DNA of 64,000 nucleotides from Patescibacteria group bacterium (lineage in GTDB: Bacteria > Patescibacteriota > Microgenomatia > UBA1400 > PJMF01). Both the position numbers and the translations under genes were made by a program. The DNA lies in contig JAHDXH010000003.1 in NCBI GenBank assembly GCA_023382875.1, positions 7,608 through 71,607 of the forward strand, in the 5' to 3' direction. Position 1 is the first letter of the stretch, and each line of letters begins with the position of its first letter. The notes beneath the pieces are model-generated. The model worked only from the letters and a program-made list of their open reading frames with translations, did not search any database and was not told where the DNA came from. Positions 4,511-52,581 of this stretch are shown piece by piece.

Positions 4511-4533
4511 TTTTCACTTGAAACTAAAAATAG

Positions 4534-4562
4534 AGGAGGGGAGAAATCCCCTCCTTTTTTAT
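4534..4562 (+). terminator. Intrinsic terminator downstream of rplY
   Basis: Perfect 9-bp stem AGGAGGGGA / TCCCCTCCT with a GAAA loop, followed by a TTTTTTAT run. Confidence 0.6.
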
Positions 4563-4577
4563 TATTTGCAATTAAAG

Positions 4578-5006: not shown

Positions 5007-5013
5007 TGGCTCA

Positions 5014-7221: not shown

Positions 7222-7245
7222 AATCGAGGATTATATCAGGATTTA

Positions 7246-9075: not shown

Positions 9076-9110
9076 CTGTTATACTTAATTTTGACATTAT
9101 TTTAAGGATT

Positions 9111-10874
9111 ATGCCAGATATTCCACTGCCCCAACCACAAATGCCGGTTGCGCCCAAGGCTATAACACCTCCGCCAAATATTCCTAGTGTCTCAAGTGGG
9201 ACAGCTGGTTTGCCAAAGCCCCCTGCTTTTAATGTTCCTGTTCCATCTAAACCAGAAACACCTAAAGTAGAATTACCAAAGCCAGTTGCGCCCGCTCCTT
9301 CTGTGCCTAATTCAGTAGTTCCAACTCCTGTTGCTGGAAATTTACCAAAACCAATTGCTCCAGCAGCTCCAACAACTTTACCAGCACCGCCAAAGCCACC
9401 AATGGCAACTCCTTCTGGAATGCCACCAGCTCCAACTGCTGTCAAACCAGAAAATCCCTCAACTCAGCCTGCAGGAGCAACACCACAAATGGCCAGTACT
9501 GGTAATCCATTGAAGAAATTTTTACCTATTATTATTGCAGTCATCTTGCTTTTAGTTGTTGGTGTGGGTGCTTTTGCTTTTATGAATGGTCAAAACAAAC
9601 CCACCTCTGTAAAAACCACTACTACTAATACTCCAACTAATACTACTAAAACTTCTGCTTCTCCAACTAGTGATTCTGGTAGACAAACAGTTCCAGATAA
9701 AAAGATTCAAATTACCTACTGGGGTTTGTGGGAGCTTTCAGCGACCATGGAACAAATTTTTTCTGATTTTGAGAAAGCAAATCCAGGGGTAGAGGTCATT
9801 TATCAGGTTCAATCGCATGTTGATTATCGACAAAGACTTCAAACCGCTATTGCTTCTGGCAATGGTCCGGATTTATTCAGATATCACGCTTCTTGGGTGC
9901 CAATGTTGTCGGCTGAATTAGCATCTTTGCCTAGTAAAATTATGTCTGTCAACGAGTTTCAACAGACATTTTATCCTGTAGCTGTTCAACAACTTCAGTA
10001 TGGCGGCCAAATCGTTGGTGTACCTTTGATGTATGACGGCTTAGGTCTTTATTACAACACTGAAGTTTTAAGTACTGCTGGTGTTGAACCACCTAAAACT
10101 TGGGTCGAACTTAAAAGTTTGGCTAGTCGTTTAACTATCCGTAATGGCAATGAAATTAAGAGAGCTGGTTTAGCTATTGGAAATGCTTCTACGACGGAAC
10201 ATTTTGCTGACATTATTGGTCTTCTCATGTTACAAAATGGTGCTGATCCTAAAAATTTAACTTCTAAAGAAGCTCAAGATGCGATGGTTTTTTACACCAA
10301 CTTTGTTAGTAAAGACAAGGTTTGGGATGAAAAATTACCTACTTCAACCGTCGCTTTTGCTAGAGGTGATGCCGCCATGATGTTGGCTCCAAGCTGGAGA
10401 GCTCACGAGGTGATGGCGCTGAATCCCAATCTCAAATTTGGTATTACTACTGTTCCTACTTTAGGAGAACAAAAGATTTCATGGGCTACTTATTGGGCAG
10501 AGGGTGTGAGTAATAAGAGTAAAAATCAAGAAATGGCCTGGCAGCTTATTAAGTACATGTCTTCAAAAGAAGTAATGCAAAAAATGTATGCCGAGCAAGC
10601 TAAAACCAGAGCTTTTGGTGAAATTTACTCTCGTATTGATTTGGCTGATAGTTTAGCTTCAGATCCTTATGTTGCACCATTCTTGGCCGATGCACCTTAC
10701 GCTAAGGGCTGGTATTTGAGCTCATATACTCATGATAATGGACTTAATGACAATTTGATTAAATATTATCAAGATGCGGTGAACGCCTTGGTTTTGGGCA
10801 AAAACCTAGAAACAACCATGGAAACTTTATCCTTGGGTTCACAGCAGGTTTTGCGTCAGTACAAAATTAAGTAA
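9111..10874 (+). CDS. Extracellular solute-binding protein (ABC type, family 1-like) with Pro-rich N-terminal extension and TM anchor
   Basis: About 130 aa of Pro-rich sequence, then a TM helix and a Thr-rich linker. This is followed by a roughly 400-aa SBP-like domain (ITYWGLW...; conserved W/Y-rich sugar-SBP pattern). No permease or ATPase genes are adjacent. Confidence 0.55.
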   Translation: MPDIPLPQPQMPVAPKAITPPPNIPSVSSGTAGLPKPPAFNVPVPSKPETPKVELPKPVAPAPSVPNSVVPTPVAGNLPKPIAPAAPTTLPAPPKPPMATPSGMPPAPTAVKPENPSTQPAGATPQMASTGNPLKKFLPIIIAVILLLVVGVGAFAFMNGQNKPTSVKTTTTNTPTNTTKTSASPTSDSGRQTVPDKKIQITYWGLWELSATMEQIFSDFEKANPGVEVIYQVQSHVDYRQRLQTAIASGNGPDLFRYHASWVPMLSAELASLPSKIMSVNEFQQTFYPVAVQQLQYGGQIVGVPLMYDGLGLYYNTEVLSTAGVEPPKTWVELKSLASRLTIRNGNEIKRAGLAIGNASTTEHFADIIGLLMLQNGADPKNLTSKEAQDAMVFYTNFVSKDKVWDEKLPTSTVAFARGDAAMMLAPSWRAHEVMALNPNLKFGITTVPTLGEQKISWATYWAEGVSNKSKNQEMAWQLIKYMSSKEVMQKMYAEQAKTRAFGEIYSRIDLADSLASDPYVAPFLADAPYAKGWYLSSYTHDNGLNDNLIKYYQDAVNALVLGKNLETTMETLSLGSQQVLRQYKIK

Positions 10875-19042: not shown

Positions 19043-20440
19043 ATGGCCAAATCATCAACAATGTACGTCTGTCAAAAATGTGAACAAACTTTTGCTAAGT
19101 GGCAAGGGCGTTGTGATAACTGTGGGGCTTGGAATACTTTGGTTGAACAAGTAGTAGAAAAGAAGAGTAAAGGACTTGAAAGTGCTAAAAACATCAAAGC
19201 TGGCGATTTTTTAGTAAAACTACCAGATGTGGACGCACTGGAAGGCCATAAAAAACGTCTTTCTACTGGAATCGGAGAGTTTGATCGGGTGTTGGGCGGT
19301 TCGTGGGACAGCGATAATGATAAAAGTAATGGCAGTGGTATCGTTCCAGGAGCTGTAGTTTTGATTGGTGGCGAGCCGGGTATTGGTAAAAGTACTTTGC
19401 TTACTCAGTTAGTAATAAATTTATCCGCTAGTGATGAAATTGGTAAAATTCTCTATGTTTGCGGAGAAGAGAGTCCAAGCCAAATTGGCCTAAGAATAAA
19501 TAGAATAATCCAAAAAGAACACAAAAAATTTGAAAATAAAAAAGACAAAATTGTTTTTGTTACTGCCACCGATGTAGATACAGTATGCCAAATTATTAAA
19601 ACTGAGCGACCATCTTTATTGATTGTAGATAGTATTCAAACCCTTACTACAGAAGAATTGAGCGGTGCCGCTGGTTCAGCTGGACAAATTAGAGAGACAG
19701 CAGATAGATTGACTGATACGGTAAAACCACTTCATATCCCCACATTTTTGGTTGGACATGTCACCAAAGAAGGTGAGATTGCTGGACCCAAAATCTTGGA
19801 ACACATTGTTGATGCCGTGCTGGAGTTGTCGGGTGACCGAACTGGCGATCTAAGAATTTTGCGTGCTGTCAAAAATCGCTTCGGTGCCACTGACGAAGTG
19901 GGTGTTTTCAAAATCAACGAAGTTGGCTTGCAAGAAGTTTCCAATCCCAGTCAAATCTTTCTTGAATATGCTGAACAAGGTGTTCCTGGCAGTAGTACTG
20001 TTTGTATTATGGAGGGAACCAGACCATTGCTAGTTGAGGTACAAGCCTTGGTTCTTCAATCACAGTTGGCCATGCCAAGGAGAGTGGGCAGGGGAGTAGA
20101 ACTATCAAGGATTCAGGTTTTATCCGCCATTTTGGAAAAACATGCTAAATTACCTTTGGGTTTTAGTGATGTTTTTTTGTCAGTTGCAGGTGGGATCACC
20201 GTAAAAGAGCCGGCGGTTGATTTGGGACTAGCTGTAGCAATCGCTAGTTCTTTAAAAAATAAAATTTTACCCAAAAAGACAATTTTCGTTGGTGAAGTCG
20301 GTCTTTTAGGAGAAATAAGAAATGTCTCATATATAGAAAGACGGATCAAAGAAGCAAAAAGGCTGGGGTACACCAATGTCATTTCAAGAAAGACTCACGC
20401 TAGAGTAAAAGATGTGCTCAAAGAACTAGAACTTCTTTAA
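19043..20440 (+). CDS. radA: DNA repair protein RadA/Sms
   Basis: N-terminal C4 zinc ribbon (CQKCEQ...CDNCGAW). Walker A motif GGEPGIGKSTLL and the KNRFG motif. A C-terminal Lon-like domain is also present. Confidence 0.85.
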   Translation: MAKSSTMYVCQKCEQTFAKWQGRCDNCGAWNTLVEQVVEKKSKGLESAKNIKAGDFLVKLPDVDALEGHKKRLSTGIGEFDRVLGGSWDSDNDKSNGSGIVPGAVVLIGGEPGIGKSTLLTQLVINLSASDEIGKILYVCGEESPSQIGLRINRIIQKEHKKFENKKDKIVFVTATDVDTVCQIIKTERPSLLIVDSIQTLTTEELSGAAGSAGQIRETADRLTDTVKPLHIPTFLVGHVTKEGEIAGPKILEHIVDAVLELSGDRTGDLRILRAVKNRFGATDEVGVFKINEVGLQEVSNPSQIFLEYAEQGVPGSSTVCIMEGTRPLLVEVQALVLQSQLAMPRRVGRGVELSRIQVLSAILEKHAKLPLGFSDVFLSVAGGITVKEPAVDLGLAVAIASSLKNKILPKKTIFVGEVGLLGEIRNVSYIERRIKEAKRLGYTNVISRKTHARVKDVLKELELL

Positions 20441-20529: not shown

Positions 20530-22752
20530 TTACTTAACTTTGCCGTACTTTTCGCGAGAGGCGCGAATGACCTTTTCTTTATTCCCATTTTTGCTTTTGG
20601 CAGGTGGTAGGGTGAGAGCAGGGAATGGCCTAGAAACGATATTGTCGATGGAAATTTTATTGATAACCTGATGTCTACTTAATGAAACCAAATCTTCGCT
20701 AGTATATTTTTCACCATATTCCTTGGCAAAAACACTGGCATCATCAGAGCCCATGACAAAACTGGCCATAGTTCCACAGTTGCCGAAGATGGCCTTTTGT
20801 ACCTCCTCTGGAATTTGAGCAATATACTGGTTGGCCAAAATTAGATTGAGGCGATATTTTCTAGCTTCAGAGAGAATTTTGTTGAATGATTCAGTGGCAA
20901 AGTTTTGGAACTCGTCGACATAGAGGAAAAAATCGCGTCTTTCTTCTTCTGAAATATAGACTCTACCCATAGCCGCCAGCTGAATTTTAGTAATTAACAT
21001 GGCGCCTAAGAGAGTGGCGTTATCTTCTCCAAGTTTTCCTTGAGAGAGATTAACCAATAAAATTTTACCCTCATTCATAATTTGCTCGATGGAAAACGAG
21101 CTTTTTTGTGTATTAACCACATTGCGAATGATAGGAGAGGTCACAAATTGACCAATTTTATTCAAAATAGGAGCAATAGCTTCGGTCATTTGTTTGGGCT
21201 GCATTTTGGCAAATTCACCAGTCCAAAAACTTTTCAAAATTGGATCATCAAGATTTTCGACGATGTTATCTCTAAATTTTTCATTGGTCAAAAGGTCGAT
21301 GATGTCTGACATTTTTGCGCTCTTACTTTGAAGCAAAGTGAGTAGAGCATTACGCAAAATATACTCAAGTCTTGGTCCCCAAGAATAAGCATAGAGTTTA
21401 TGGAAAATTGAGATAATACCAGAGGCGATTAACTCACGGTGTTGCACATTTTCACCTTCAAAAAGATTGAGTTTAATGGTTCTCTCTGTATCGCCAGGGT
21501 CAAAATAAACAACGTCATTAATTCTTTTGGATGGAATGTAGTCGAGAAGTGTCTCAACTAGGTCTCCATGTGGATCGATCACACAAAGTCCCTCGCCGTT
21601 TTTTAAGTCATTGATAGCCATATTGGCCAGCATGGTTGATTTTCCGGTACCGGTTTTTCCAATCACATACATATGGCGACGACGGTCAGCGCGCTTAAGG
21701 CCATAGACGACTTCTTGATTTTTATAAATGACTTTGGCGTAAGGATTAATTTCTTTTTTAAGAGCTGAATCCATGTCTCGAATGACAATAGGTAGGTTTT
21801 CTGGTGGTTCTCCCAATAAATTTTTTCCCCAAGCAATATTGGGAATAGTGGAGAGGTTGGCATTGGGTAAGTGGAAAATTGTAGCCAGCTCGTCAAGACT
21901 TAAGTTGAAATTGTTGGTCAGGCCAAAGCTGCGATTTTTGATGTCTCTAATGAATAAATTCTTGAACAAAAAGCTCTTCCATAGGTAGAAGCTATTACTT
22001 TCTGATTGAGTAATAGCTTGGAAAGAATTGGTTAAATTTTCTAGTAAAATGTCGGCTCGGTCTTGATTGTTAGAAGCCACCATCAAACGAATGGCGGTCT
22101 TTAAAGCAGTTGTTTTGAGTTTTTTTTGAATTAAGTCTTTTTGGGGATGAGTTTCTTTGGTAGTAGAGGAGCCAGTCAGTTCGTCGGCAATATTGAGGTT
22201 TTTTTTATCGACTTGAGTGTAACCTTTGCTGCGCCAGCCGAGGTTATTTTTGGAAATGACTAATTGAATACCGACTTTGTCAAAAGGACCGGCTTTGGCT
22301 AAGACAGATAAGACCGTTGCCAAAGGATCAATATTAGTAAAGTCCTTGTAATCTTTGAGGGGTAAATAATCAGGGCCAGTGAGTTTGAGATGGCCAAGAC
22401 TCAAATAAGTACTTTTGTCACTTAAATATTGGAGTTGATCTTGATGCTTATGAATATTAACAAAGTGATCCAAAGGGTCAAAATCAAGTTGATTGATCAT
22501 TATTTCCGGATAACTAGCTTGAAGAAGACTTCTCAAGTATTCTGCTAATCTCTCTGGAACGTAGCACAAAAAATAAATTGTTTGACTTAATGACAAAATC
22601 TCAAAACTTAAGTGTTCATCTTGATTGAGTAATTTGTAGTAAAGATTATGGCGAAGCTTGGGTAGGGTAGCAAAGAGTTGAGCCGCTGTCTCTGGGGTGT
22701 GTTCAGCGTCTCGACCGGTTCTCAGCTCAAGAATAACGTGTCTAGAAGACAT
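20530..22752 (-). CDS. VirD4/TraD/TrwB-like P-loop ATPase (type IV coupling-protein-like), orphan
   Basis: Walker A motif YVIGKTGTGKST and Walker B/DExQ-like motif FLYVDEFQNFA. The about 740-aa size is typical of conjugative coupling-protein/HerA-FtsK-like ATPases. No other T4SS genes are in the window. Confidence 0.5.
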   Translation of the reverse strand: MSSRHVILELRTGRDAEHTPETAAQLFATLPKLRHNLYYKLLNQDEHLSFEILSLSQTIYFLCYVPERLAEYLRSLLQASYPEIMINQLDFDPLDHFVNIHKHQDQLQYLSDKSTYLSLGHLKLTGPDYLPLKDYKDFTNIDPLATVLSVLAKAGPFDKVGIQLVISKNNLGWRSKGYTQVDKKNLNIADELTGSSTTKETHPQKDLIQKKLKTTALKTAIRLMVASNNQDRADILLENLTNSFQAITQSESNSFYLWKSFLFKNLFIRDIKNRSFGLTNNFNLSLDELATIFHLPNANLSTIPNIAWGKNLLGEPPENLPIVIRDMDSALKKEINPYAKVIYKNQEVVYGLKRADRRRHMYVIGKTGTGKSTMLANMAINDLKNGEGLCVIDPHGDLVETLLDYIPSKRINDVVYFDPGDTERTIKLNLFEGENVQHRELIASGIISIFHKLYAYSWGPRLEYILRNALLTLLQSKSAKMSDIIDLLTNEKFRDNIVENLDDPILKSFWTGEFAKMQPKQMTEAIAPILNKIGQFVTSPIIRNVVNTQKSSFSIEQIMNEGKILLVNLSQGKLGEDNATLLGAMLITKIQLAAMGRVYISEEERRDFFLYVDEFQNFATESFNKILSEARKYRLNLILANQYIAQIPEEVQKAIFGNCGTMASFVMGSDDASVFAKEYGEKYTSEDLVSLSRHQVINKISIDNIVSRPFPALTLPPAKSKNGNKEKVIRASREKYGKVK

Positions 22753-23369: not shown

Positions 23370-24758
23370 ATGTCAGATGATTTAAATCAAATCATTGGTC
23401 AACCTCCTGTAGATGATGTTGATCAAGAAATAGCAGAGACCCAAGCAGATCAAGCTGATCAAATTGAAATCCAAGCTTTAAAAGAAGAAAAAAAAGAAGA
23501 TAAGTCAGTTTCAAAAGAAACTACCTCCAAAGAAAACACTCCCGTTTCTAAACCGAAAATTGTTCCAGTTGCGCCACTCAAACCATCTTTAATGAGACCA
23601 AAGAAAAAAGAGATGGAAGATGATGGCCCAGCCGAAACCGTTCGTGGTGTTTTAGACCTCTCTAGAGATGGTCATGGTGTGTTGCGTCCAGAATTTTCTG
23701 AATCAGAGCGTGATATCTATATTTCTAACTCTCAAATCCGTCGTTTCAAATTACAGGGTGGAGACATGGTTGAAGGTCCAGGTCGTGCTCCTAAGGAAAA
23801 TGAGCGCTATTGGGGTTTACTCAAGGTTGAAAGAGTGAACGACCGCGATGTCGAAGACCATATCAAAAACTTTGACAAAGTTAAATTTCACCGCTTAACA
23901 CCAGTTTATCCAGATCAACAAATCAAATTAGAGATCGGTGAAGAGCCATTGTCTCTTAGAATCATTGATTTGGTTGCTCCAATTGGTAAAGGTCAGAGAA
24001 GTTTGATCGTTTCGCCACCTAAGGCTGGTAAAACCACCTTGCTCAAAGATATCGCTACTGGTATCGCTAGAAATCATCCAGAGATTCATTTAATGGCTGT
24101 TTTGGTGGGTGAGAGACCTGAGGAAGTCACTGACATCAGAAGGCATATTAGTCACATTACAGGTGGCAAGGGTGAAACCGCTGCTAGTAACTTTGACGAA
24201 CCAGCCAAAGACCAATGCCGTGTGGCTGAATTAGCTTTGGAAAAAGCCAAAAGAATGGTAGAAACCGGCAAAGATGTAGTGATCTTGCTTGACTCTATTA
24301 CTAGATTGGCTCGGGCTTATAACTTATCTATTCCTACTTCTGGTCGTACTTTGTCTGGCGGTTTTGACCCAGCAGCTTTGTTCCCACCAAAGAAATTCTT
24401 TGGTGCCGCTCGTAACTTTGAAGTTCAAGGTAGTTTGACTATCATTGCCACAGCTTTGGTCGAGACTGGTTCTAGAATGGATGACTTGGTTTTCGAAGAG
24501 TTCAAGGGTACTGGTAACCAAGAAGTTAGTTTGGACAGAAGATTGGCTGAGAGAAGAATTTACCCAGCTATTAATGTTCAAAAATCAGGCACTAGAAGAG
24601 ATGATTTATTATTCGATCCAGTTACTTATCAATCAGTTATTACTCTGCAAAGAATGATGGACATGGTTGATGGGGATGACAGAACCATGACTTTAATCAC
24701 TCAAATGAAGAGAAGTAAGACTAATAAAGACTTCTTGGCTTCTTTGAAATCTGGTTAA
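23370..24758 (+). CDS. rho: Transcription termination factor Rho (with N-terminal insertion)
   Basis: [33 protein letters not shown] (Walker A and Q-loop context). The RNA-binding domain and C-terminal RecA-like ATPase are both present. An N-terminal acidic/K-rich extension is also present. Confidence 0.85.
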
Positions 24759-27195: not shown

Positions 27196-29244
27196 TTATT
27201 CAGTTGGCACTACTTTGGCAGATGGGGTAGCATCAGTAGATTTTTTGGTATTTTCCACTGGTGGTGCTTCGACTTCTGGAGTGACGCTCTCTACTGGATT
27301 AACATCAGGTAGGGTGTTAGTTGCTTCTGGTGACTTTTTATCAATTGCTTCTTTGGCAATTTTTTCCAGTTCTTGTAGCTCGTCAGCAGCCTTCAAGTAA
27401 TCCTCTGAGTCAGGTTGAAGTAAGATGAGAGTTTTTTGGTAAGCCAATTTGGCCTCATCAAATCTTCTGAGCATTTTTAAGGTATTAGCACCATTGTAGT
27501 AGGCATTGGCGTAGTTTGGTTTTAAAACCGCTGCTTGTTCAAAGAATTTAAGAGCATCTTCATACTGTTTGGCGTTAAATAAGACACCTCCTAAAACCAA
27601 TCTTAGCTCTGGATTATTTGGTGCTAATTTGATGGCTTCAGCGTAAGCACTGGCAGACCATTCTTCAGAGTTTTCAGCTACACCAATCAAGGTTTGGTAA
27701 ACTTGGGCAGCTAATTGCCAGTTGGCGACATCTTTACCATCTAGAAGGATTGAAGCTTTGCTTTCTCTAATAGATTGTTGAATTAATTGAGCAAATTGTT
27801 TTTTGTCATCTTCGCTCAAATCAGCCTTTTGAGAAATAGCAGCAGCAATAAAGATATTGGTTACTGCATATTTTCTTCTATTTCCATCGAGATATGGATT
27901 GAGTTTGATAGCTCTTTGTTGCAATGAGTAGGCTAAGACAAAATCATTGTTAGTAGCTGCCTTAGATGAAAGGTACATTAAGTGGCTAGAGTAGGTGGCA
28001 ACACCCAATAAAGCGACTAATGATAACGAGCCAACAGCTAGCAGTCCAAGAAGTGCTCTGATAATAATTGTACTTTTACTGGCTAAAAATTTGTTTTTTG
28101 CCAAAACACCTTTAAGATTGAGGCTGTAAACTGCAAACTTTTCTTTTTCTCCAGCAACCCAGAAAACCATCAAGACAGCTTGAATAGTTAAGAGAACGAT
28201 ATTCAAAGGCATAAACAATTGAATAGCTAGGGTGGCCAACATCATCATGTGAACTGGTTTGGTTTGGCTGGTGACTGATTTGGTTTGCTTGAGTGTATTA
28301 ACAACCAGTAGAGCCCAAGCAATTAGGCCAAAAATACCTAAGCTGACGACGATTGAAAGTGGTACGTTGGCACCTTGAGAAAATTGAACATTCCAGTATT
28401 CACTATTATTAATCCAGGCTGGCTTATTTAGGTTATAAGCTTGTAAGTAGTTGTCTGGACCAACTCCAAGAAGAGCTGTCTTGAGACTTCTTAATGAATT
28501 TATAGCTACAGACCATGAAGCAGTTGGACTCAAAATAACTGGAGTAGTGGCTTTGCCAGGTAATAATAACCAACCATAGTAAACGATAGAAATCGCACTG
28601 ACTGCTAAAACAACGCTTTCCCAAAGTTTAGCTTTCTTGGCTTGAACGACTTTGGTAGAAAAACCAACAGCAGCAACAAGAGCAATTTGTAGTGAAACTA
28701 AGGTTGATCCAGATAAACTAAACAAGGCGTTGTTTGGTAAGTTAAGTCCAAGTAATTTGTTTAATAAGAGCGATGGTCCAACGCCAAATTGTTGTAGTAA
28801 TGATGTAACTAGGAGTGCTGCGCTGGAGAAACCAAGTACATTCAAGATTTTGGCGGTGCTATTGGTTTGGTGTTTGACCAATAAACTACCGTTTAAAACT
28901 ATTATTGCTAAGGCCAGCATGACACCACCAATATTAAGTAAGCTTTCGACTGGATATTGATTGTTGGCGAATAGGGAAATCAAGGTGATTCCACCAAGCA
29001 AAGCCATTGGCAGAGTAAATGGAGTTTTCAGAAAACTTAAAGCACCCTTTTTGAAACTATGAACAAAGTACCAAGTCATCATTATCAATCCGGCCAAAAT
29101 GACGGCAATGTATTTTGAGGCAACAATCGACTGATCTAGGATTGGAGCACTACCTAAATTTGTCCAAAGAACCAAGATCAGAGCAATTGGGATGACCGAA
29201 ACACCCATCGGTAGGTTTGAAAGTTTGGACATTAAATTTTTCAT
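27196..29244 (-). CDS. Polytopic membrane protein with C-terminal TPR repeats (Wzy_C / O-antigen-ligase-like candidate)
   Basis: At least 12 predicted TM helices followed by about 200 aa of TPR-like repeats (AYYNGANTLKMLRRFDEAKLAYQKT...). The GVGPDNY segment resembles the Wzy_C glycine motif. Confidence 0.45.
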   Translation of the reverse strand: MKNLMSKLSNLPMGVSVIPIALILVLWTNLGSAPILDQSIVASKYIAVILAGLIMMTWYFVHSFKKGALSFLKTPFTLPMALLGGITLISLFANNQYPVESLLNIGGVMLALAIIVLNGSLLVKHQTNSTAKILNVLGFSSAALLVTSLLQQFGVGPSLLLNKLLGLNLPNNALFSLSGSTLVSLQIALVAAVGFSTKVVQAKKAKLWESVVLAVSAISIVYYGWLLLPGKATTPVILSPTASWSVAINSLRSLKTALLGVGPDNYLQAYNLNKPAWINNSEYWNVQFSQGANVPLSIVVSLGIFGLIAWALLVVNTLKQTKSVTSQTKPVHMMMLATLAIQLFMPLNIVLLTIQAVLMVFWVAGEKEKFAVYSLNLKGVLAKNKFLASKSTIIIRALLGLLAVGSLSLVALLGVATYSSHLMYLSSKAATNNDFVLAYSLQQRAIKLNPYLDGNRRKYAVTNIFIAAAISQKADLSEDDKKQFAQLIQQSIRESKASILLDGKDVANWQLAAQVYQTLIGVAENSEEWSASAYAEAIKLAPNNPELRLVLGGVLFNAKQYEDALKFFEQAAVLKPNYANAYYNGANTLKMLRRFDEAKLAYQKTLILLQPDSEDYLKAADELQELEKIAKEAIDKKSPEATNTLPDVNPVESVTPEVEAPPVENTKKSTDATPSAKVVPTE

Positions 29245-29319
29245 AGTGATTTTATTAGACCAAATCTGGAGGGTAAATGTAAAGTAGTCAATCTACAGCA
29301 ACTTTGCTATCATAAAAAT

Positions 29320-29967
29320 ATGTTTGAAATACGCCGAAAAAATGGTTTTACAATGATCGAACTTTTGGCGGTGGTGGCAATTGTGGCGGTTTTAGTTTTG
29401 GCTTTTATGTTCTTAATGCGGGGACAACAGGCTAAAGCTCACGATTCCAGAAGGAAAACTGACCTTGAAAATATTCGCATCGCTTTTGAAGATTACTTTA
29501 ATGACAATGAGTGTTACCCGCCTGACACGATTCTAGATGTTTGTGGTTCTGATGATTTAGATCCATATTTGAAAAAAGTTCCCTGTGATCCACTTTCCAA
29601 AGAACCATATGCTTATGAACCAGTTGCTAACTGCGGTGGGTATAGGGTTTATGCAGTTTTAGATTATAAGGAAGATCCACAAATTGCCAGAATGGAGTGT
29701 GATGGAGTAGAGGGTTGTGGGGCAGCCTCTGGCCCTCAGTACAATTATGGTATTTCGGTCGGTGTTCCTTTGTATGGCGGTGGAGTAGTAATTGCCTCAC
29801 CTTCGCCAACTCCAATTCCCGAATTTGTTTATGCTTGTGATAGTACGGGTGTTTGTAATAAATTTGATGGTGGCAATCCGGTTTTAAATACTTGTCCAAT
29901 TACTTTTGAAGAAACTGACTGTCAAAATTCATGCGCTAGCTTAGCTAACCGTTGTTCTGGATTCTAA
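29320..29967 (+). CDS. Type IV pilin / pseudopilin-like protein (prepilin-type N-terminal cleavage/methylation domain)
   Basis: GFTMIELLAVVAIVAVL class III signal (G at -1, F at +1, E at +5). The GspG-like downstream motif AHDSRRKTDLENIRIAFEDYFNDNECYP follows. The C-terminal part is rich in Cys, Pro, Ser and Thr. Confidence 0.7.
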   Translation: MFEIRRKNGFTMIELLAVVAIVAVLVLAFMFLMRGQQAKAHDSRRKTDLENIRIAFEDYFNDNECYPPDTILDVCGSDDLDPYLKKVPCDPLSKEPYAYEPVANCGGYRVYAVLDYKEDPQIARMECDGVEGCGAASGPQYNYGISVGVPLYGGGVVIASPSPTPIPEFVYACDSTGVCNKFDGGNPVLNTCPITFEETDCQNSCASLANRCSGF

Positions 29968-29978
29968 GTTTAATAATT

Positions 29979-30521
29979 ATGAAAACAAAAAACTCAGTTA
30001 TAAATGTCGCCAGATCAGGTTTTACCTTGGTTGAGATTTTGATTGTCATTGTGATTGTGGGAATTCTGGCTACCATAGGCTTTGGTAGTTTTCAGTCATC
30101 TCAGTTGAAAAGCCGTGATGCTTCAAGAAAAAGTGATTTGAGGCAAATTGCTAGTGCTTTGGAAACTTATTATAATGATCACGGCCAATATCCAACTGAC
30201 AGCGGTGGCTCTATTAATGGTTGTAATGGTGGTTCTCCTTGTACTTGGGGAGAGCCTTTTATCGACGATAAAGGGACTGTTTATATGATCAAATTGCCAT
30301 TTGATCCACAAGAGAGTCGCAACTATTACTATTCTAGTGATGGTACTTCTTTCCAGATTTATGCTGGTTTGGAGAATGATTTAGACAAAGATATTCCTTT
30401 GTCTGGCGGCGTTCCCTCTGAATATGATGGCTTGCTTTGTGGAGCAGAAAAAGTTTGTAATTATGGTATTGCTAGTCCAAATACTACTCCGGAAGAGGGT
30501 AGAACTTTGGTGGCAATGTAG
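29979..30521 (+). CDS. Type IV pilin / pseudopilin-like protein
   Basis: SGFTLVEILIVIVIVGILA class III signal, then SRDASRKSDLRQIASALETYYNDHGQYP. Start reassigned to the ATG at 29979 (MKTKN). Confidence 0.7.
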   Translation: MKTKNSVINVARSGFTLVEILIVIVIVGILATIGFGSFQSSQLKSRDASRKSDLRQIASALETYYNDHGQYPTDSGGSINGCNGGSPCTWGEPFIDDKGTVYMIKLPFDPQESRNYYYSSDGTSFQIYAGLENDLDKDIPLSGGVPSEYDGLLCGAEKVCNYGIASPNTTPEEGRTLVAM

Positions 30522-30538
30522 AATTATTTAGGCAAAAT

Positions 30539-31000
30539 ATGCAAAAACAACAAGGCTTTTCTTTAATTGAGTTGCTGGTGGTGATTTCCATCATTGGTGC
30601 TTTGGCTGCGTTGTTGGTTACTAATCTAGTTGGTGTCCGTGGTCGTGCCGCTGATGCTTCTTTGAAAAACGATTTAAATCAGCTTAAGACGTCACTTCGT
30701 CTTTATTACAACGACTACCAACAATATCCAGATTCATCTGGTGGTAGTATGCTTGGTTGTGGTTCTTCTGGAACTACAGCCTGTACTCCAGGCGAAGAAT
30801 TTTCCGCCGGCTCTGGACCAACAGTTTATATGCAAAAGTTGCCAAAATCTTTCACTTACAATGTGAGCGGTGATAATGAAAACTTTGTTTTGGCAGTTTC
30901 CTTGAGTAATCTTTCTGATGCTGATATTGCAGCTAGTGCTTCTCGCTGCGGTCAAACAGCTACTGCTAGCTCCTCAGCCTATTATGTTTGTAATAATTAA
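30539..31000 (+). CDS. Type IV pilin / pseudopilin-like protein
   Basis: QGFSLIELLVVISIIGALAA class III signal, then the ADASLKNDLNQLKTSLRLYYNDYQQYP motif. Confidence 0.7.
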   Translation: MQKQQGFSLIELLVVISIIGALAALLVTNLVGVRGRAADASLKNDLNQLKTSLRLYYNDYQQYPDSSGGSMLGCGSSGTTACTPGEEFSAGSGPTVYMQKLPKSFTYNVSGDNENFVLAVSLSNLSDADIAASASRCGQTATASSSAYYVCNN

Positions 31001-31289: not shown

Positions 31290-34200
31290 TTAATTAACAA
31301 TCCACCAGTTGAACTTAAGATCATTGTTGACTGGATAGTCGAATCCAACTTTGAAGCTGCTTTCAACCTCTGGAGTTTCTGGGTTATCTGTGGCAATTTC
31401 TTTGACGTAGAGAACTTGATTGTTGGTTGAGCCGAGTGGAGTAAGGTAAATTAACGATTTACCCGTCACAATCTTGGATTTGATGACAATTTCATTACTA
31501 TTGGCTTTGATAGTGGCAGTACCAGACGTCTTTTCTGACTCAATTGTGCCAGAATCGCTAGCCACTTGAAGTTCTTCGCTACCAATTCCTAAGCCAGAGG
31601 CAAATTCAGCTTTACCTTGAGCCGAGATAGTGGCTACTGGAACACCTAATTCATTGACGATTTCGAATCTAGATTCCTGAACAGTTTCTCCAAGAACATC
31701 TCCAGATTTAGTAGCCAACTGAACTTGGAATGGATTGTTGTAGTCATTTAACTTCATTAAGTTAGCCAGCAAAGTGCCGCCAACTTTAACATCGCCTGAA
31801 ACCTCAAGGTTACCAGTTAGTTGAGCTAAGCCAGTGTCGTCTAAAGTAAAGAGGTTGCCCATCAAAGAGAGGACACCTTTGCCTGATGGCTGTAGAGCTA
31901 AGACTGGTTTTTCAACGCCAGTTGGAGCAAAGTCAATGCTACCAGCAGTGACAAACATGGAATCGGATAAGACTAAGCTTTGGCCAATGCCGAGTTTTTC
32001 TGCTACGAAAGCTGAGCCATTAACATCCAAGTATTGATCGACATAAATAGCATCGGCATCAATGACTAAGGCATCTTCATCTAATGTTAGATCAGATAAG
32101 GCTAAGCGTGATGGGCTAGAGGTATCAATATCGGCCAAGAAAGCAGATCTTGAGGCGAAGTAACTTTCAACACTTTCGACGGTGTTTTGGTTGGCTGAGC
32201 CACTTAATTTAGCTAACAAAGATGGTTCTTCAATAGCGGCGGCCACTTTTTCGCTAAATCTATCAATGTTTTCTGCAAAGAGAGTTCCAGATACGGTAGC
32301 ATTGACGATCTCAGCTGTCTCGGCTTTGATCTGTTCAACCTGAGCAATTCGAGCTTCAAGCTCTTGAATACGAGCACTGCTTGCATCTAAGTCTCCAGAG
32401 ATGGAGGCATCTTTGGTGTAAATTACTTCTGCGGTGACAGTGCTGGTTTTGTTTTCTTTAGAAATAATTGTACCCAAGGTAATGATGTTGCCATCTTTGT
32501 CGATTGAGGTAACACTTGATCCGGCTGAATTTTCGATGACTAGGGCTGGCTTAGCTGAGCTAGAAGCATCTTTGTTTTCGCCAAGTCGAACATGAATAGA
32601 ACCATCATCGGCGATTGGGCTGATCATGTTGGTTTGTAAGTTGTTGGTTCTAACGATGTTGGAGAAGAGATCTAGGAATTGGCCAGAAACGGCGGTGAAT
32701 TTGCCGTAAACTTCAACACTACCGGCGATTAATTTGCCATAAATGGTGGCACCTGCAGCATTGAGTGATCCGTAGGCATTAATGGTGGTAGCGCCAACAG
32801 TGTTTTTTACAGTTTCACCGTAGGTAACAAATTTGTTTTTAGCCTCAAACAAGTCAGATTGGTATTTGGTAATCGAGTCAAAGTTGCTGTTTGTGGTTGT
32901 ACCCTCTAAAACTTCGCCAGAAATTGTGGCTTCGGTTTTGGTCCAGCCTAGGAAAGCATCCAATCTTTCATCTGCAAGTTTCTTGAGTCTTGAAGTTAAT
33001 GATTCTTTGACCAAAGTTGCAGAAGCAGTGGCGGTATTTGGGTTGAGTTGAGCAGAATTACTAGCAATTTCACCACTATTTGTCGCTTCATTGATTTGAC
33101 CACTGATGGTTGATTCTGGGCTGTTGGCAATTTCACTGCTGCCTGAAGCGTTAACCACGTTGATTGCTTGCTGGGTTTCTTCGCCAAAGATTTCTTCGAG
33201 TGAGGCATTATCTACACCACCAATATCTTTACCATCCAAGTAGGTGCCGAGGTTGACAAACATCATCACCCAATCTTTGCCAGATCCTGGGGTCCAAGCT
33301 TCTACAGCCTTACCAATGGTATAGCCAGTCTTTTGAGCTTTCATTGCTCGGCCGGGAACGTTGGAAGAAGTGATGAAGTCACCTGGCAAGATGGCGGCAG
33401 AGTCTGAGGCAATTTTGACTGGCACACGTCCTGCTAGCGCAACACGCTTGGTGTTTTCAGCTTTTTCACCAATTTGTAGTCCAGGAGCAGTGGAGATCAC
33501 ACCAATTACAGCAGGATCATAGGCTTTGGCAGTGCGGACAATGTATCCAGATTGAGTAGAGGTGGTGTCAGCGCTAACCACTTCGGCTGCTGAAATAGTT
33601 TTGTCGGTGGTGGGGTACCACTCGGCAAGGTCGGCACCGCCGCCAGATTCCCAACGCATAGCCATGGATTTTAAGATGGCGTTGCCATTGATTCTAGCTT
33701 TCCAGCGCATGGTGGTACCTTCTGGTTGTGAGGTAAGATCGGCAAATCCTGAAAAGATCTTCAAATCACCTGATTCGGTAGCCTGTTGGGTCATGGTAAC
33801 TGGTGTCCAAGTCACGCCGTTGTCGCGAGATGCCCAATAATCAATAGATCCGGTACCTAGATCTGCCCAAGAAATTAAGTTGGCGCGTCTTGGTAAAACA
33901 TTTGCTTCAAAATCTTCGGAAACGACATTGGATTCACCAGAGTAGGCGATAGACACCTGACTGATGGATGGGAATGATGAAGTGTCGGTTGAGGTTAAGA
34001 TAGCACGATATTGGACGTAATTATTAGCAGTAGTGTTTGGTTGATAGCCACTGTTGGTAATATAACGATTGGCCGTGAAGTCATCGATATAAATATCATT
34101 GATATATGGAGCTAAGTTGGTGACTCTTAATTTGGTGACTGCATTTTTATTGGCGGCAGGAATATCAGAGATATCGAAGAAGACTTTTTGCCACTGGAAT

Positions 34201-40200: not shown

Positions 40201-43200
40201 CCACGATAACCTTTGCCGGTCATATTAATGGAGCCGCCACTTTGGACATCGAGGGTACCGGCAACTCTAAAGACAAGCAAACCACCAGAAGTGCCATTCC
40301 AATCATTAGCCGTTAATACGCCGCCTGATTGGACAGTGACGTTGTAATATTGAGGAACGCGTTGAACAACCACTTTTTGACCAGTTAAATTAAGATTAGA
40401 GCCGTAACCATAGCTATTGCTAATCGCAGTTTCAAAATAGAGGATTGAGCCAGAAACCAGGGAAACTTTTGCGAATTCGTAGTTTCCAGTATTGGCATAG
40501 GTGGTATTAGTGTCACCTTGAAGGTTGATCAGCATCACCTCATCACCAGCGACGATACCATTGGGGGTGGCAGAAGTAGTCACTGATGAAGAGTTGATAA
40601 CAGAAACAGAGTAAGTAACTGCATCAGCATAGCTTCTGCCCGTGGCTACGATGTCGGTGTTAAGATTCTTGCTGGTGGAAACAGTGATTGAGCCATCGTG
40701 TCCATCTCCGTTATCAATATATTTTTCGATAGTGACTGATCCGTCTAATCCGCCCGATTCAACAGTGCGATAGGTCTCGTTGTTGAAGCCAAATTCGTTT
40801 TGGACATCTTGGACAATGGTGAAGGGGGTATAAGAAGTCCAGTTACCCTGAACATCCATGTTATCAATCACTTTTTCGTTAACGTTTGTAACAATTGGTT
40901 TCCAAGCTTCCCAAGTGCCATCAGTGGAGTTGGCTGTATTTCCAGATCTAGTCATGATTTGGACTTCGCCGTGAGTGTTGAGATTCTCGCTCCACTCTAT
41001 TAAGTCAAAGGAAATTGTATTAGGTGTCTGAATTTCATCAGATGTGAAAATACCGTAGTCTTCGTAAAGACTTAGACTACCAGCTGTAAAAGTCGGATTT
41101 GTGGTGCCAATTGTTGTGATCGCATCAACTTTAATACGACCAGATCCACCTGCGCCACCGTGAGCAAAGCCACCCAGATCGGCATAAACACCTCCATATG
41201 ATGAGCCACCTGTGGTTCCACCAGATCCTCCAATTGCGCTTACACCACCTTGAAGATCAACAGTTTTTCCTTTCAAGTAAATTGTTCCACCAGCTCCACC
41301 TCCACCACCACCTGAAGAAATTGTTTCGCCTGTTGCACCAGATGCGCCACCTAAACCGACAGATGTGATAACTCCATTAGTTGAAGTAATTTTGTTAGCG
41401 CTGATAAAGACAATACCACCACCATCTCCACCAGTTCCACCCACTTTATCCCATGCGCCAGCATAACCAGCTCCACCACCACCACCTGCTGAGCCTAAAT
41501 AAAGTTTGCTTAAATTCGCATCTCCATATGTAGAGGTTCCTGATGCACCGGCGGTAGGACACCCAGTACCAGCTCTTGTTCCACCAGTGCCCGCAGTTCC
41601 ATATCCACCACCATCGCCTCCATTACAGGCAGCACCACCAGCACCACCTGCTTCTGTTTTAGCTGATGTGTGAAGTTCAGCTCCAGGTCCTGTTGTACTT
41701 TCACCTTGATAGGCAACAGTTGCATTTGTTGGGGCACCAATACCACCTCTATATCCAATGCCTGTTGCTGTAATTTGTCCACCAACCTTAACCAGAACTT
41801 CTCCTGATGCTCTAAAGGCAACTAAGCCAGTTTGATAACCAGCAGTGCCAATGGGAGTGGCTGGTATTGATAAAAAGTCATCCCAATCGCCAGCAGTTAT
41901 TATTCCGCCAAACTCAACTGTGACATCATTGTATTGAGGAATACGTTGGATAATGATGTCCTGACCAGATAAATTAGAGTTGCCACCTACGCCGTAGGTA
42001 GATTGAATACTGGAGGTAAAGGCAATGTTAAGTCCAGAAACGGAGCTAACAGTCAAAAATTCATATGTACCAACGTTGGCATAATTGCTTGCATCACCCT
42101 GCATATTAATTAAAATCACTTCGTCGCCAGCTACGATACCATGTGGAGCGTAGTCAGTTGAAACTGCATTAGTAGCAATACCAGTTACTTTATAAGCAAC
42201 ACCGTCAGCGAAGTTTCTTCCAGCTGCAATAATGTCTGAGTTTATATTTTTGGTAGCTGAAACAGTGGCATCTCCATCCGCACCAGTGCCGGTGTTAGTG
42301 GTTTTAGTGAGTTCTAATGCTGGAGTAGCTGAGGCAGTTGCATTGACAAATGCACCTTCTAAAAATTCTTGTCTGGTGTCTTCAACAACATCTGATGTAG
42401 GGTTAGCTCTACTGAACCAGTCATTAACAGAATCGTAGGTGTAAGTAGAAAGATTTGTATCAACGCCAGTTATTCCTTCAAATTCATCAGCGACACCATC
42501 TTGGAACAGTTCATAAAGCGAGCCATCTGATTGTTGTAGTCGCAAAGAGTTTAGGAAAATATTGGTTGTGTCGCCAAGAGAGATGTTCATTAATTCGTTA
42601 AGAGCAGCAATGATGGAGTTGGTAGTAAAACCAGCATGGAGTTGGGTGGTGCCGGTTTCAGATAGGGCAATTTGGCTGGTTAAGTGAGAATCTTTGAAAG
42701 TTAGGTCTGTACCGTCACCAGAGACATAGGTGTTGGTGTTGTAAAGGTAGATTTGACCACCTTCTAATTTGCCATCGCCAGCGGCATTGAGCGATGTACC
42801 TGTGGCAGCTGGATCTAAATAGTAGGCAGAGTTAGCTAAGTCAACGAAGCGTTGAGAGTGAACATAGCCATCATTATCAATGCGCATTCTAGTTAGACCA
42901 GATCTAGAAGCAGTGAAAATGTCTTGATTGCCTAACTCATTAATTTGAACCAAGGCTTGTCCGGTAACTGCGCCTTCAACGTCGAGTTTTGCTTCTGGAG
43001 TGTTGTCACCAATACCAGTGTTGCCGTTGGCATTAACTCTGAATAACTCGGTAAGACCTCCATTAGTGTTGATGGTGAAGTTTTCAATAGTGTCGTTGTT
43101 GTCGTCATCAAGGTCGATTTTTACATTGAGGTAGGAGTTGATGCCAATACCACTATTAATGAAGTCGATGTTGTTGTAAGGGTTGTAGGTCGTACCAAGT

Positions 43201-46200
43201 AGTTGAGTTAGGTAAACATCGCCATCATTTTCAATTTTGAATTTAGTGACGCCAGAAGCAGAAGCAGCAAAGATATCTTGATTTTCAGTTTGGTTAATAA
43301 TTACGGCAGCTTTGCCTCTAGTTTCTGATCCGGCTAGAGAGATTTTGGCTGAGTTGGTAGCAATGTTACCAAGGTTAATTTCATAGCTTGTTTGAGTAGG
43401 TGAAAGGGCACCGCTATTAAGCTGCCAATAGCTGGCGCCGCCTGTCATGCTGACCCAAGTTGTACCGTTATAGTAGTAAACGCCATCATTGGTAGTGTTG
43501 TAATAGAGAGCGCCATCGCCCATAGCAGTTGGATCGCCAGCGAAGTTGGCTAGTTGTAGTTGACCGCCTAGTTTTAATGATCCAGATAGAGTGGCGTTGC
43601 CACCATAATCAATAGCAAAGCGAGTAATACCAGATGATGATGCAGTGAAGATATCTTGATTTTCAGTTTGGTTAATGATGACAGCAGCTTTGCCGCGATC
43701 CAAAGCACCAGCTAAGGAAACTTTAGCTGAGGCGGTAGAAATACTACCAATATTGACGTCAGCGCCAGTTGAAAAAGGTGAAATGGTGCCATTATTGAGT
43801 TGCCAGTAAGCGTTACTAGCCAGACCAATATCGGTCCAGTTACCACCAGAGAATTTATATTGTAAAGTGCCAGCGTTGTCTCTGAAACCGTAGCCACCTG
43901 TGCCATCAGTGTCACCCCAATTAAGGTAGGAGTTGGCAGCTAAATTAATGTTACCATCAACTTCTAAGATCCCTTCCACAAATAAATCATTATCGTCATT
44001 GGTAATATCACCAGCGTTGGTGTTGGAAATTGAGTTGTAGTTGGCACCAGTCAAACCACCAATGTTGAAGACATTATTGTTGGCAAAATTGATTTGACCG
44101 CCAAAAGAATCAAATTGGAGGTCGCCAGAAACATTGCTGATGGTGTGACCAACCCCACCCACAGCAACGATGTTGCCACTTGAGTTGACTTGGAAAAGGT
44201 CGCCAGCTCCAACAGAGAGAAGGGAAGTTGGACTAGAATCGCCAATACCAACATTGCCGTTATTGGCAATGACAAATCTAGTTGTGCCAGAGGCAGAGGC
44301 AGTAAAGATGTCTTGATTTTCAGTTTGGTTAACGATCAATGCAGACATACCTCTGGTTAAGGAGCTAGCAATGGAAACTTTGGCAGAGCTGGTAGCAGTT
44401 GCACCAAAGTTGACGTCGGTGGTTAAGGAGAATGGACTAAGTACACCATCGTTCAACTGCCAGTAACCACCACTACCTCCTGAACTAAAATCAAGCCAAG
44501 AGCCGCTGCTGTTTTTGAATTGTAAAATACCGGCGTTGTCTCTAATACCATAACCTGATGAACCTAAAACTGTGCCCCAGTTAATATAGTTGCCAGTAGC
44601 CAAACCAATATCGCCGGTCACACCTAGGTTGCCATCATAATCAATGGTAAATTTGGTTGCACCAGAGGCAGAGGCAGTAAAGATGTCTTGATTTTCAGTT
44701 TGGTTAACGATCAAAGCAGACATACCACGATTTAAAGCACCGGAGATAGAAACTTTAGCTGAAGTGGTGGCAGTGTCACCGATGTTTAAACCTAGGCCAA
44801 GATAACTTGGGGAAAGCATACCATCGGTTAGTTGCCAAAAGTCACCGGCAGTGTTGGAACCCCAAATCAAGTTGCCAGAGCCATCATTCATTAAGACTGT
44901 GCCAGTGGCTCCTGCAGCATCTGGAAGGGTATAGATAATATCGGTACTAAGCAGGGATGGAGCTCTGAATCCAGTGTAGTTAGTTCCATTTGAAGCACTT
45001 TCTCTTAATCTTAAAGAGGCTTGATCGCCAACGATGATATTACTACTCGTGAGCAGTTCGCCGATATTTCCTGTTGATGCTAATGAGCCAACTGCAAAAG
45101 ATCCATCAACTCTAAGGTCATCACTGAACCTTAAATCGGCGGTGTCATCGTAGAAATATCTATTATTGGTACCAATATATAATCGGTCATTAATCTCAAT
45201 GCCAAGACCAGCGGTAGAGAATAAAACTGGATTATTGCCGTCTAAATCAATCGAAAGATCGGTGTTGATACCACCATTTCCACCCCCAAAAACTAAGAAA
45301 TCATCGGTTGAGTTAGAAATGTACTCAGAATTTGCTAGGGTAAGATTGCCATTGTTAGCGATAGTGAACTTAGCAACACCAGATGCTGAGGCAGCAAAGA
45401 TTGGTTGGTTTTCAGTTTGGTTGATGATAGCTGCAGCTTTACCTCTAGTTAATGAGCCTGCTAGAGAGACTTTGGCTGAATCAGTAGAAGTTCCGCCAAT
45501 ATTGACGTCAGCAGTAATATAACGAGGAGTTAGGGTGCCATTAAAGAATTCCCAGTAAGTGTTGCCAGCTACGCCAAAATCAGTCCAAGTGCCACTACTG
45601 TTTTTGAATTGGAGAGTACCAGCGTTGTCTCTAACGCCATAGCCAGAAGTTCCATCTACATCGCCCCAGTTAATATAACCACTAGCATCCAAACCAATAT
45701 TTCCGGCAACATCTAATCTGTGATCTGGAGTAGCATCACCCAGTCCTACAAATCCATTAGAACCTTCAATAAATAAGGCAGCTACATCAGTGTCACTTTC
45801 AACTCTAAAGTCAACGTTACCACCTTGTTCATTAAAAACAGCTGCACCAGTATTGCTGAGCCAAATACCGGCACTACTAGTGGAGTTACCACCGATGGCC
45901 AGATCATCACTCCAGTATTGGGTGGGGTGGATGAGGTTGCCTAGTTCTGACCAGAAGGCGTTGCCAGCACTGAAGTTGTAAACATTGTTAATAGCATCAA
46001 CAATTCCTTGTGGAAGGGATGGGTTTAATTGTGTGTCGACTAAACTTAGTGGCAAGTCTGTAACTCGAGCATCACTAAACAAAATGTCAGAGGTAGCCTC
46101 CAAGGACAAAGTACCACCAGAAATAGTAAAGGTTCCAGACACTGATTTTAAAGTTGGATTATTTTCACCAAGAGTAACATTGCCACCAGCGTCCATAACT

Positions 46201-51487: not shown

Positions 51488-51502
51488 TAACTACTTTTGC
51501 CA

Positions 51503-52576: not shown

Positions 52577-52581
52577 GTTAT

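Follow-up and report, generated by a model that had tools for sequence, protein, structure and literature searches.

Which role should be assigned to a polytopic membrane protein whose gene lies beside three tandem pilin genes in a bacterium of the candidate phyla radiation (CPR)? The question is raised by a stretch of 64,000 nucleotides (hereafter, the window; G+C content ~39%) from contig JAHDXH010000003.1 of the Patescibacteria assembly GCA_023382875.1 (Microgenomatia). In it, the 682-amino-acid product of one gene, called here protein X, carries the NCBI annotation 'hypothetical protein KJZ63_01850' (MCL4208359.1). Host attachment in CPR/Patescibacteria relies on pili and huge surface proteins, and the pilin glycosylation predicted in this group still has no enzyme assigned to it. 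A first-pass annotation, made from the DNA letters, had proposed that X is a pilin O-oligosaccharyltransferase of the PglL/PilO type. Sequence profiles and structural models indicate instead that X is a remote member of the O-antigen-ligase (Wzy_C/WaaL-fold) superfamily, with other residues conserved on its predicted outer face. The pilins are ordinary, and the novelty of the locus lies in X, which represents a widespread, unannotated and divergent ligase-like family.

Protein X and the O-antigen-ligase superfamily

Gene X is a real conserved gene and not a chance open reading frame (ORF). An exhaustive search with a profile of its transmembrane (TM) domain alone yielded 10,252 cluster representatives at E<=1e-3, of which 1,177 reach E<=1e-30. 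Among the 150 best matches, almost every one is 620-800 aa long, which fits the same architecture, and tetratricopeptide repeats (TPRs) were found in 62 of 63 diverse members. The family is large, unnamed, annotated as hypothetical and apparently confined to CPR, and our literature searches turned up neither an account of it nor one of any enzyme that glycosylates proteins in CPR.

According to hydropathy, the hydrophobic part of X consists of its N-terminal 415 residues. The first-pass annotation had counted at least 12 TM helices, a number that hydropathy and the AlphaFold2 models (pLDDT 86-90) reduce to 11. Its description of a polytopic protein with a C-terminal TPR array was borne out, as the Pfam models TPR_17, TPR_1, TPR_19 and TPR_11 exceed their cut-offs. 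Lysine and arginine number 16 in the six short inner segments and 1 in the four short outer loops. Because of this positive-inside bias, the N-terminus is predicted to be cytoplasmic, with the 66-residue loop, the TPR domain and the C-terminal tail outside.

Given that a Foldseek search with the full-length model was dominated by TPR proteins (for example, MamA with TMt 0.84), the TM domain was modelled separately (pLDDT 89.6, pTM 0.89). With this TM-only model, the top match in the PDB was the O-antigen ligase WaaL (7tpg_B; E 1.2e-3, prob 1.00), and the remaining matches were transporter noise (prob <=0.25). The kinship was also detected at the sequence level. Among the distant matches retrieved by the TM profile, P0197-P0199 combine TPRs with a precomputed Pfam Wzy_C (PF04932) annotation. 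Since a comparison of the X family with the single E. coli WaaL gave no signal in hhalign, P0197 and P0198 were used as a bridge, and the X family aligned with P0198 at 97.0% (E 8.6e-11, 384 columns) and with P0197 at 97.8% (E 1.2e-12). Within the family itself, Wzy_C matches appeared in 20 of the 63 members at E<=0.01, the best at 1.2e-9. In eight relatives scanned singly, they reached 15-25 bits, under the gathering score of 31.7 bits, and covered profile positions ~16-148, ending at the GxxG that opens TM8. The outer-loop GxGPxN(Y/F), W, N and GxxG motifs are common to the X family and canonical Wzy_C proteins. Of the Wzy_C-type architecture proposed for X, what stands is thus the remote superfamily homology (hhalign 97-98%, 20/63, 7TPG), and what falls are the features that define PglL/PilO.

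Every invariant or near-invariant residue of the TM domain maps either to the predicted outer face or to the 66-residue outer loop, whose invariant motif comprises W244, G260-x-G262-P263-x-N-Y266, K274-P275, N279, W284, F288 and N293. Conservation reaches 98-100% across the family for G260, G262, P263, P275, N279, W244, W284, K44 and K/R274, with column values of 100% K/R at K44, 79% D/E at E100, 70% at K231, 94% at R252, and 98% at both K/R274 and N279. Because this conservation is confined to the outer face, it speaks for an outward active or binding site and against a decayed pseudoenzyme. Judged from alignments and models, the outer face resembles a working site of binding or catalysis built from another residue set.

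Pilins and surface proteins beside gene X

The first-pass annotation had described X as convergent with the pilin genes, when the two are divergent, standing head-to-head with starts at 29244 (X) and 29320 (pilin 1) and 75 bp between them. Promoter-like hexamers are present on both strands, but a promoter and terminator scan of the locus showed no excess over shuffled sequence (16 hexamers against 10.6 +/- 3.8).

The pilin trio consists of real conserved genes for type IV pilins or pseudopilins, not chance ORFs, and each pilin has orthologues at 9-10 loci. As first described, the three ORFs are in tandem on the + strand and carry class III signals, with G-1, F+1 and E+5 in each. A short basic leader ending in Gly precedes F-(T/S)-(M/L)-(I/V)-E and a hydrophobic helix (MFEIRRKNG/FTMIE in pilin 1, MKTKNSVINVARSG/FTLVE in pilin 2 and MQKQQG/FSLIE in pilin 3, the slash marking the cleavage site). 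Pfam N_methyl scored 27.8, 29.8 and 34.2 bits in pilins 1, 2 and 3, respectively, above the gathering score of 21.2, and TIGR02532 scored 28-31 bits in all three against a cut-off of 16.3. For the GspG/PulG-like cores also claimed for them, the matches are weaker: T2SSG matched pilin 2 weakly (22.5 bits against 21) and fell under its cut-off in pilins 1 and 3, and NCBIfam GspG gave E 5e-9 to 2.5e-15 across the pilins (2.5e-15 in pilin 2), all below cut-off. NCBI names pilin 1 a 'prepilin-type N-terminal cleavage/methylation domain protein' and pilin 3 a 'GspH family protein'. If started at the listed TTG (29952), pilin 2 would share 16 nt with the end of pilin 1. Since ATG 29979 yields a normal 14-residue leader and removes the overlap, it is most likely the true start.

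The Ser/Thr/Pro-rich strings that had been quoted from the pilins (SPSPTPIPEF, ASPNTTPEEG and TASSSAYY) were found in the sequence and differ in their conservation. In pilin 1, which begins with a 9-aa prepilin leader, an (S/T)P(S/T)PTP linker joins a GspG-like core to a Cys-rich C-terminal domain and is kept in 8 of 9 orthologue loci. In pilin 2, which likewise has a GspG-like core, C-N-Y-G-I-(S/A)-S-x-N near the C-terminus is conserved in an orthologue alignment of 10 loci. The Ser-rich TASSSAYY of pilin 3 is not kept in distant orthologues, and the C-terminal Y-x-V-C-x-D/N is. The pilin 1 linker and the pilin 2 C-terminal Ser would, on these alignments, be reasonable O-glycosylation targets, as candidate sites. 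Also as first reported, the pilus machinery is not encoded here: the families of PilB, PilC and PilD (T2SSE, T2SSF and Peptidase_A24) were absent from the ORFs covered by our domain-family scan of the window (all those >=100 aa other than rho, M23, obg, the probable ComEA and the central part of the giant ORF), and a regular-expression scan detected no further prepilin signals in the 64 kb.

Beyond the pilins lies a gene for a giant surface protein, on the same strand as X. Its predicted cytoplasmic N-terminus carries a SAM-like domain (Phage_int_SAM_1, E 7e-9; nt 46998-47222), and the protein has a single TM helix and long repeated modules rich in Gly. Its orthologues, 1466 to 7758 aa in length, have in common only an N-terminal part (~aa 200-415) and a C-terminal part of ~450-800 aa. 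The giant protein ends in a module of ~75-115 residues ('..sG.a.i.ag...i.i.s..vt..SLIYiTP.s.T.nqvLYV...gF.v....d..FNWWIVN*') for which there is no Pfam family and which a local hidden Markov model (HMM) recovers at E 1e-30 to 1e-39. This FNWWIVN module always stands at the extreme C-terminus of a protein encoded just upstream of X. Its carriers range from 222 aa (WWE3, Saccharibacteria) to 5335 aa here, with a 7758-aa orthologue in a relative, and other occurrences include L016:3698-4366, L018:3393-4076, L020:3629-4432 and L002:4781-5974.

Two side observations concern these proteins. The minimal module proteins consist of a ~100-aa cytoplasmic domain ('GIDFGKGDPYNRLRYYTKIGWLPH..'), one TM helix and the module, thereby combining a DNA-binding-like cytoplasmic domain with a surface-protein end. 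In the repeats of the giant protein (42498-45497, - strand, residues 599-630 of the segment), a Frataxin_Cyay match at E 4.6e-11 contains no individually significant stretch and is probably a compositional or repeat artefact.

We compared 27 X-family loci, 9 from homologue look-ups (the window included) and 18 from a scan of GTDB species representatives. Most of the 80 loci from a single-protein scan were TPR-only matches in cyanobacteria and other phyla and were left out. By title or gene content, all 18 scan loci are Patescibacteria (Amesbacteria, WWE3, Saccharibacteria, Gottesmanbacteria, Levyibacteriota and the Microgenomates group). Five loci (L015, L019, L026, L027 and L079) are titled 'uncultured Gammaproteobacteria bacterium' and carry a CPR-type X, in 4/5 cases together with a pilin trio; the titles are probably taxonomic mislabels. 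No X paralogues were found within the compared loci.

An orthologous pilin trio lies beside X in 12 of the 27. In a rough neighbour-joining tree, these fill two whole clades (the window with L012, L011 and L009; and L015, L079, L022, L019, L028, L027 and L021), between which X identity is ~26-30%, and the twelfth is L002. There the trio sits on the opposite side of X, so that the adjacency of X and pilins appears to have survived a rearrangement. An FNWWIVN-ended protein is encoded upstream of X and on its strand in 16 of the 27 loci, either directly or just past the inserted pilin trio. At further loci, this place is occupied by different large surface proteins, whose ends are of the LamG or dockerin type, and in most loci without pilins a large surface protein is found directly upstream. 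What the neighbours of X have in common is, therefore, that they encode secreted or surface proteins, and the pilin trio seems to have been added in particular lineages.

Possible functions of protein X

The reading that we favour, though tentatively and at somewhat less than an even chance, is that X is an outward-facing transferase, in which the TPR domain holds surface-protein substrates and the ligase-fold domain presents a lipid-linked glycan, with non-canonical residues at work. The TPR domain would capture secreted or membrane-anchored surface proteins, here the three divergent pilins and the giant FNWWIVN-ended protein, while the TM domain would present a polyprenyl-(pyro)phosphate-linked glycan at the outer leaflet for transfer onto Ser/Thr-rich segments, such as the SPSPTP linker in pilin 1 or, in pilin 2, the C-terminal Ser. 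Donor binding and catalysis may have been taken over by K44, E100, K231, R252, K274, N279, W244 and W284. Homology, fold match, predicted topology, residue conservation and gene linkage are what the analysis shows, whereas the donor, the acceptor and any transfer are inferred. Glycosylation of pilins or surface proteins is a plausible, putative role of X. X is offered as a concrete candidate, a member of a CPR-wide unannotated family derived from O-antigen ligases, with an outward TPR domain and genomically linked to pilins and module proteins, and K44, E100, R252, K274 and N279 are proposed as residues for mutation.

A wider proposal, which we consider doubtful, is that of a CPR-specific surface-protein modification or anchoring system, in which X and its 1,000-10,000 relatives would recognise the C-terminal module ('...SLIYITP...LYV...FNWWIVN*') on giant adhesin-like proteins, and some of them pilin trios, for glycosylation or covalent attachment to an envelope polymer. 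The logic of such a tag-enzyme pair would resemble that of the C-terminal domain of the type IX secretion system with A-LPS, or that of exosortase, whereas the parts differ.

Several observations weigh against the transferase reading. Three residues are essential in E. coli WaaL (R215, R288 and H338; we verified the numbering on the E. coli K-12 waaL sequence), with equivalents R224, R298 and H349 in PglL (PMC3643930). A check for conserved His and Arg residues in the large loop, suggested by the first-pass annotation, showed in residue-level alignments that the canonical Arg/Arg/His set is not present in X. The position of the catalytic His is Ala292 (codon 28369-28371): the canonical 'QAHNEF' or 'EAHNDY' aligns with 'QGANVP', and the canonical '..(A/T)HN..L....(E/D)xG..G' stands opposite 'QGA292N293VPLSIVVS301LG303IFG306'. 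In this column, the 63 relatives have S in 30, R in 9, A in 8, T in 6, N in 4 and H in 1, and His occurs in 0/25 closer homologues. The TxxTR-bearing segment, which forms the R215 hairpin of two TM helices in P0197/P0198, is deleted in X, so that X has 11 rather than 12+1 helices. For R288, which is the Arg in R-x3-W, the alignments show P240 or a gap in X, and the Trp is kept as W244. Other basic residues near the missing Arg sites (K231, R252 and K274) are conserved. Since the canonical set is missing, the chemistry of X must differ from that of WaaL, PglL and TfpO, and it appears that a Wzy_C fold can persist without the canonical Arg/Arg/His, which matters for the annotation of O-oligosaccharyltransferases by homology.

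The direct searches point the same way. No Wzy_C, PglL_A, PMT_2 or TMEM260 match was found in X by a Pfam scan at E<=0.1, nor any O-antigen-ligase match by an NCBIfam scan, so that in the proposed profile comparison with Wzy_C and PglL neither family matches X directly, and PF04932 is absent from the precomputed annotation of all 35 word-indexed homologues. The TM-score to WaaL is only 0.39-0.43 (0.39/0.43), and a sequence-profile search of the PDB returned TPR proteins only with the full-length alignment and nothing with the TM-only one. The genomic context adds further points. No glycosyltransferase, flippase or initiating phosphoglycosyltransferase was detected in the 64-kb window by the ORF family scan, which weakens transfer without removing it, because pglL is unlinked from its own glycan genes in some bacteria. 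No pilins lie within ~5 kb of X at the other 15 of the 27 loci (at at least one of these, L001, the contig ends at X), and pilin adjacency was rejected as a universal trait of the X family. Where it occurs, it is limited to clades, and the rho-M23-obg-X-pilins block could partly reflect inherited synteny. A surface protein is a more general neighbour of X than pilins are. Finally, pilin glycosylation in CPR is so far a software prediction only, for Saccharibacteria, with no enzyme named (PMC11623550).

The loss of all three residues essential in WaaL/PglL, together with the deleted TM hairpin, could also mean that X has no catalytic role and serves as a scaffold, receptor or assembly factor, a degenerate ligase-fold anchor in the membrane whose outward TPR domain binds the pilins, the C-terminal module of the giant protein, or both, and retains, chaperones or organises them on the cell surface. 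Proteins with TPRs, such as PilF, PilW and Tgl, act in pilus biogenesis in diderms, and the TPR region of X weakly matches the PilW and Tgl models (E ~3-6e-6). The consistent position of X beside proteins with one common C-terminal module and the absence of glycan genes nearby in the window also favour a scaffold. However, the PilW and Tgl matches are generic TPR matches (26 bits against cut-offs of 154-225), and the specific identification of X as a PilW/Tgl-like pilus-biogenesis protein was rejected since they lie so far under the cut-off. The outer-face-specific conservation of small and polar residues (98-100%) resembles a substrate site, and the GxGPxN(Y/F) motif has been retained from active Wzy_C enzymes. 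On balance, we regard a scaffold as improbable, though a serious contender. Less probable is that X is an enzyme of envelope glycopolymers, either a Wzy-like polymerase or a ligase onto lipid or wall, which does not act on proteins and whose adjacency to pilins is inherited synteny in the reduced CPR genomes. To our knowledge, the Wzy polymerases of the same superfamily need no WaaL His. The X family is found across many CPR lineages irrespective of pilin adjacency, and the rho-M23-obg-X block recurs. Such an enzyme is harder to reconcile with an outward TPR domain in 62/63 members, the usual sign of a protein partner, with an X-pilin adjacency that outlived the L002 rearrangement, or with upstream partners of 222 to >7000 aa that keep the C-terminal module at only 25-30% X identity.

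The proposal from which we started, a canonical pilin O-oligosaccharyltransferase of the PglL/TfpO(PilO) type, is very improbable. X does belong to the Wzy_C superfamily and adjoins pilins with S/T-rich C-termini. Against this, the defining R/R/H residues are lost, PglL_A (PF15864), the motif that sets PglL apart from WaaL (PMC3643930), has no match in X at E<=0.1, Wzy_C is below detection in X, and 11 TM helices plus TPRs are unlike either PglL or TfpO (PMC3643930). PglL of Neisseria, PglS and the TfpO/PilO of Pseudomonas and Acinetobacter act at the outer face on pilin Ser/Thr. They share the superfamily with X, and their genes often lie beside the pilin substrate (PMC3643930), as gene X does, head-to-head with pilin 1 and at 12/27 loci. 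In contrast to X, they have no TPR domain. R224, R298 and H349 of PglL are not conserved in X, where the PglL_A motif is also unmatched, and tfpO follows pilA within one operon, whereas X and the pilins are transcribed divergently.

WaaL/Wzy_C (C. metallidurans WaaL 7TPG and E. coli K-12 WaaL) remains the best and only credible fold match of X. Both have the outer-loop W, GxGxxN(F/Y), N and (E/T)xGxxG opening the next TM helix, and in both the conserved site faces outward. They differ in that X lacks H338 (Ala292), the R215 hairpin and R288, in that X has 11 TM helices and WaaL 12, X having in addition an extra C-terminal TM helix, the TPR domain and a disordered tail, and in that the host of X is a monoderm-type CPR bacterium without lipid A-core.

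In architecture and context, the closest analogue of X, compared by description only, is TfpW of P. aeruginosa, a pilin D-arabinofuranosyl transferase. This pilin glycosyltransferase of 646 aa has its N-terminus in the cytoplasm, 11 TM helices and periplasmic TPRs, and its gene lies next to pilA (bioRxiv 10.1101/2020.04.19.049825). TfpW and X thus agree in length (~650 aa), N-in orientation, number of TM helices (11), a large C-terminal TPR domain outside the cytoplasm and a pilin-adjacent gene. However, TfpW is classed as GT-C/ArnT-like and has, in its first periplasmic loop, a DDx motif that X lacks: loop 1 of X (aa 32-40, 'SAPILDQSI') has a single acidic residue, which is not invariant, and the family alignment contains no conserved acidic pair. 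No ArnT structure appeared among the Foldseek matches of the TM-only model, WaaL being found instead. An ArnT-like or DUF2723/TMEM260 identity, named in the first-pass annotation as the alternative family for X, was rejected, as there is no match to either family and the fold match is WaaL.

The GT-C protein O-mannosyltransferases TMTC1-4, TMEM260/DUF2723 and PMT_2+TPR combine a polytopic lipid-linked-sugar transferase with lumenal or extracytoplasmic TPRs for proteins. Their logic is like that of X, which has no PMT_2 or TMEM260 sequence match. As a separate observation, the L002 locus contains, ~3 kb upstream of X, a TMEM260_N gene (DUF2723, GT-C O-mannosyltransferase-like; L002:736-2661) with a TPR-protein gene before it. 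Independently of X, this TMEM260_N gene is another candidate for the O-glycosylation of proteins in that lineage.

Other features of the window

The gene content of the window (rho, M23, obg, VirD4-like, RadA, leucyl-tRNA synthetase (LeuRS), ComEC and the 5335-aa ORF) is a typical Patescibacteria/CPR set. The positions of the main features are collected in Table 1.

Table 1. Positions of gene X, its predicted domains and neighbouring features in the window
Feature	Position	Strand	Basis or remark
rho	23370-24758		
M23 peptidase gene			In the window beside rho/obg; member of the recurring rho-M23-obg-X block
obg	25914-27146		
Gene X, 682-aa membrane + TPR protein	27196..29244	-	ORF; homologues P0001-P0035; AlphaFold2, full length, pLDDT 86, pTM 0.82
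X disordered Pro/Glu/Thr-rich C-terminal tail, aa 638-682	27199..27333	-	AlphaFold2 pLDDT below 50; sequence
X TPR domain, aa 435-637, predicted extracytoplasmic	27334..27942	-	Pfam TPRs; AlphaFold2 helices; Foldseek; topology
X TM domain, aa 14-414, 11 TM helices, N-in (predicted)	28003..29205	-	Hydropathy; AlphaFold2 TM-only; positive-inside; Foldseek; hhalign
X large outer loop, aa 228-293	28366..28563	-	Family alignments, column counts
Divergent intergenic spacer X/pilin 1, 75 bp	29245..29319	.	Sequence
Pilin 1, 215 aa	29320..29967	+	N_methyl; orthologue alignment
Pilin 2, 180 aa counted from ATG	29979..30521	+	N_methyl, T2SSG, GspG; orthologue alignment
Pilin 3, 153 aa	30539..31000	+	N_methyl; orthologue alignment
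Giant surface protein, 5335 aa	31290..47297	- (X strand)	ORF; orthologues upstream of X elsewhere
Giant-protein C-terminal module '...SLIYLTPLGSTNNQVLYVKE...FNWWIVN*'	31293..31637	-	HMM built from C-termini

A gene for a VirD4/TrwB-like coupling ATPase (DUF87, TraG-D_C; 20530-22752, - strand) adjoins radA (19043-20440, + strand). No other genes of a type IV secretion system were seen at that locus, and relatives keep the ATPase in the same position, there also with DUF8128.

On the far side of the giant gene, a run of six genes (49415-56450, - strand) encodes a 690-aa protein with Ig-like and CarboxypepD_reg domains, followed by products of 357, 484, 328, 250 and 226 aa, which have no Pfam family. 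Most of the six have N-terminal signal or TM sequences, and the run may be an operon for another surface structure.

This run is followed on the + strand (56537-61337) by LeuRS, a probable ComEA (59177-59878, assigned by synteny only) and ComEC. In L006 and L007, X lies only ~1.2-1.5 kb from LeuRS-ComEA-ComEC. The giant gene, the pilins and the other genes found here between X and LeuRS therefore constitute a variable segment, and the pilins could be part of a competence pseudopilus.

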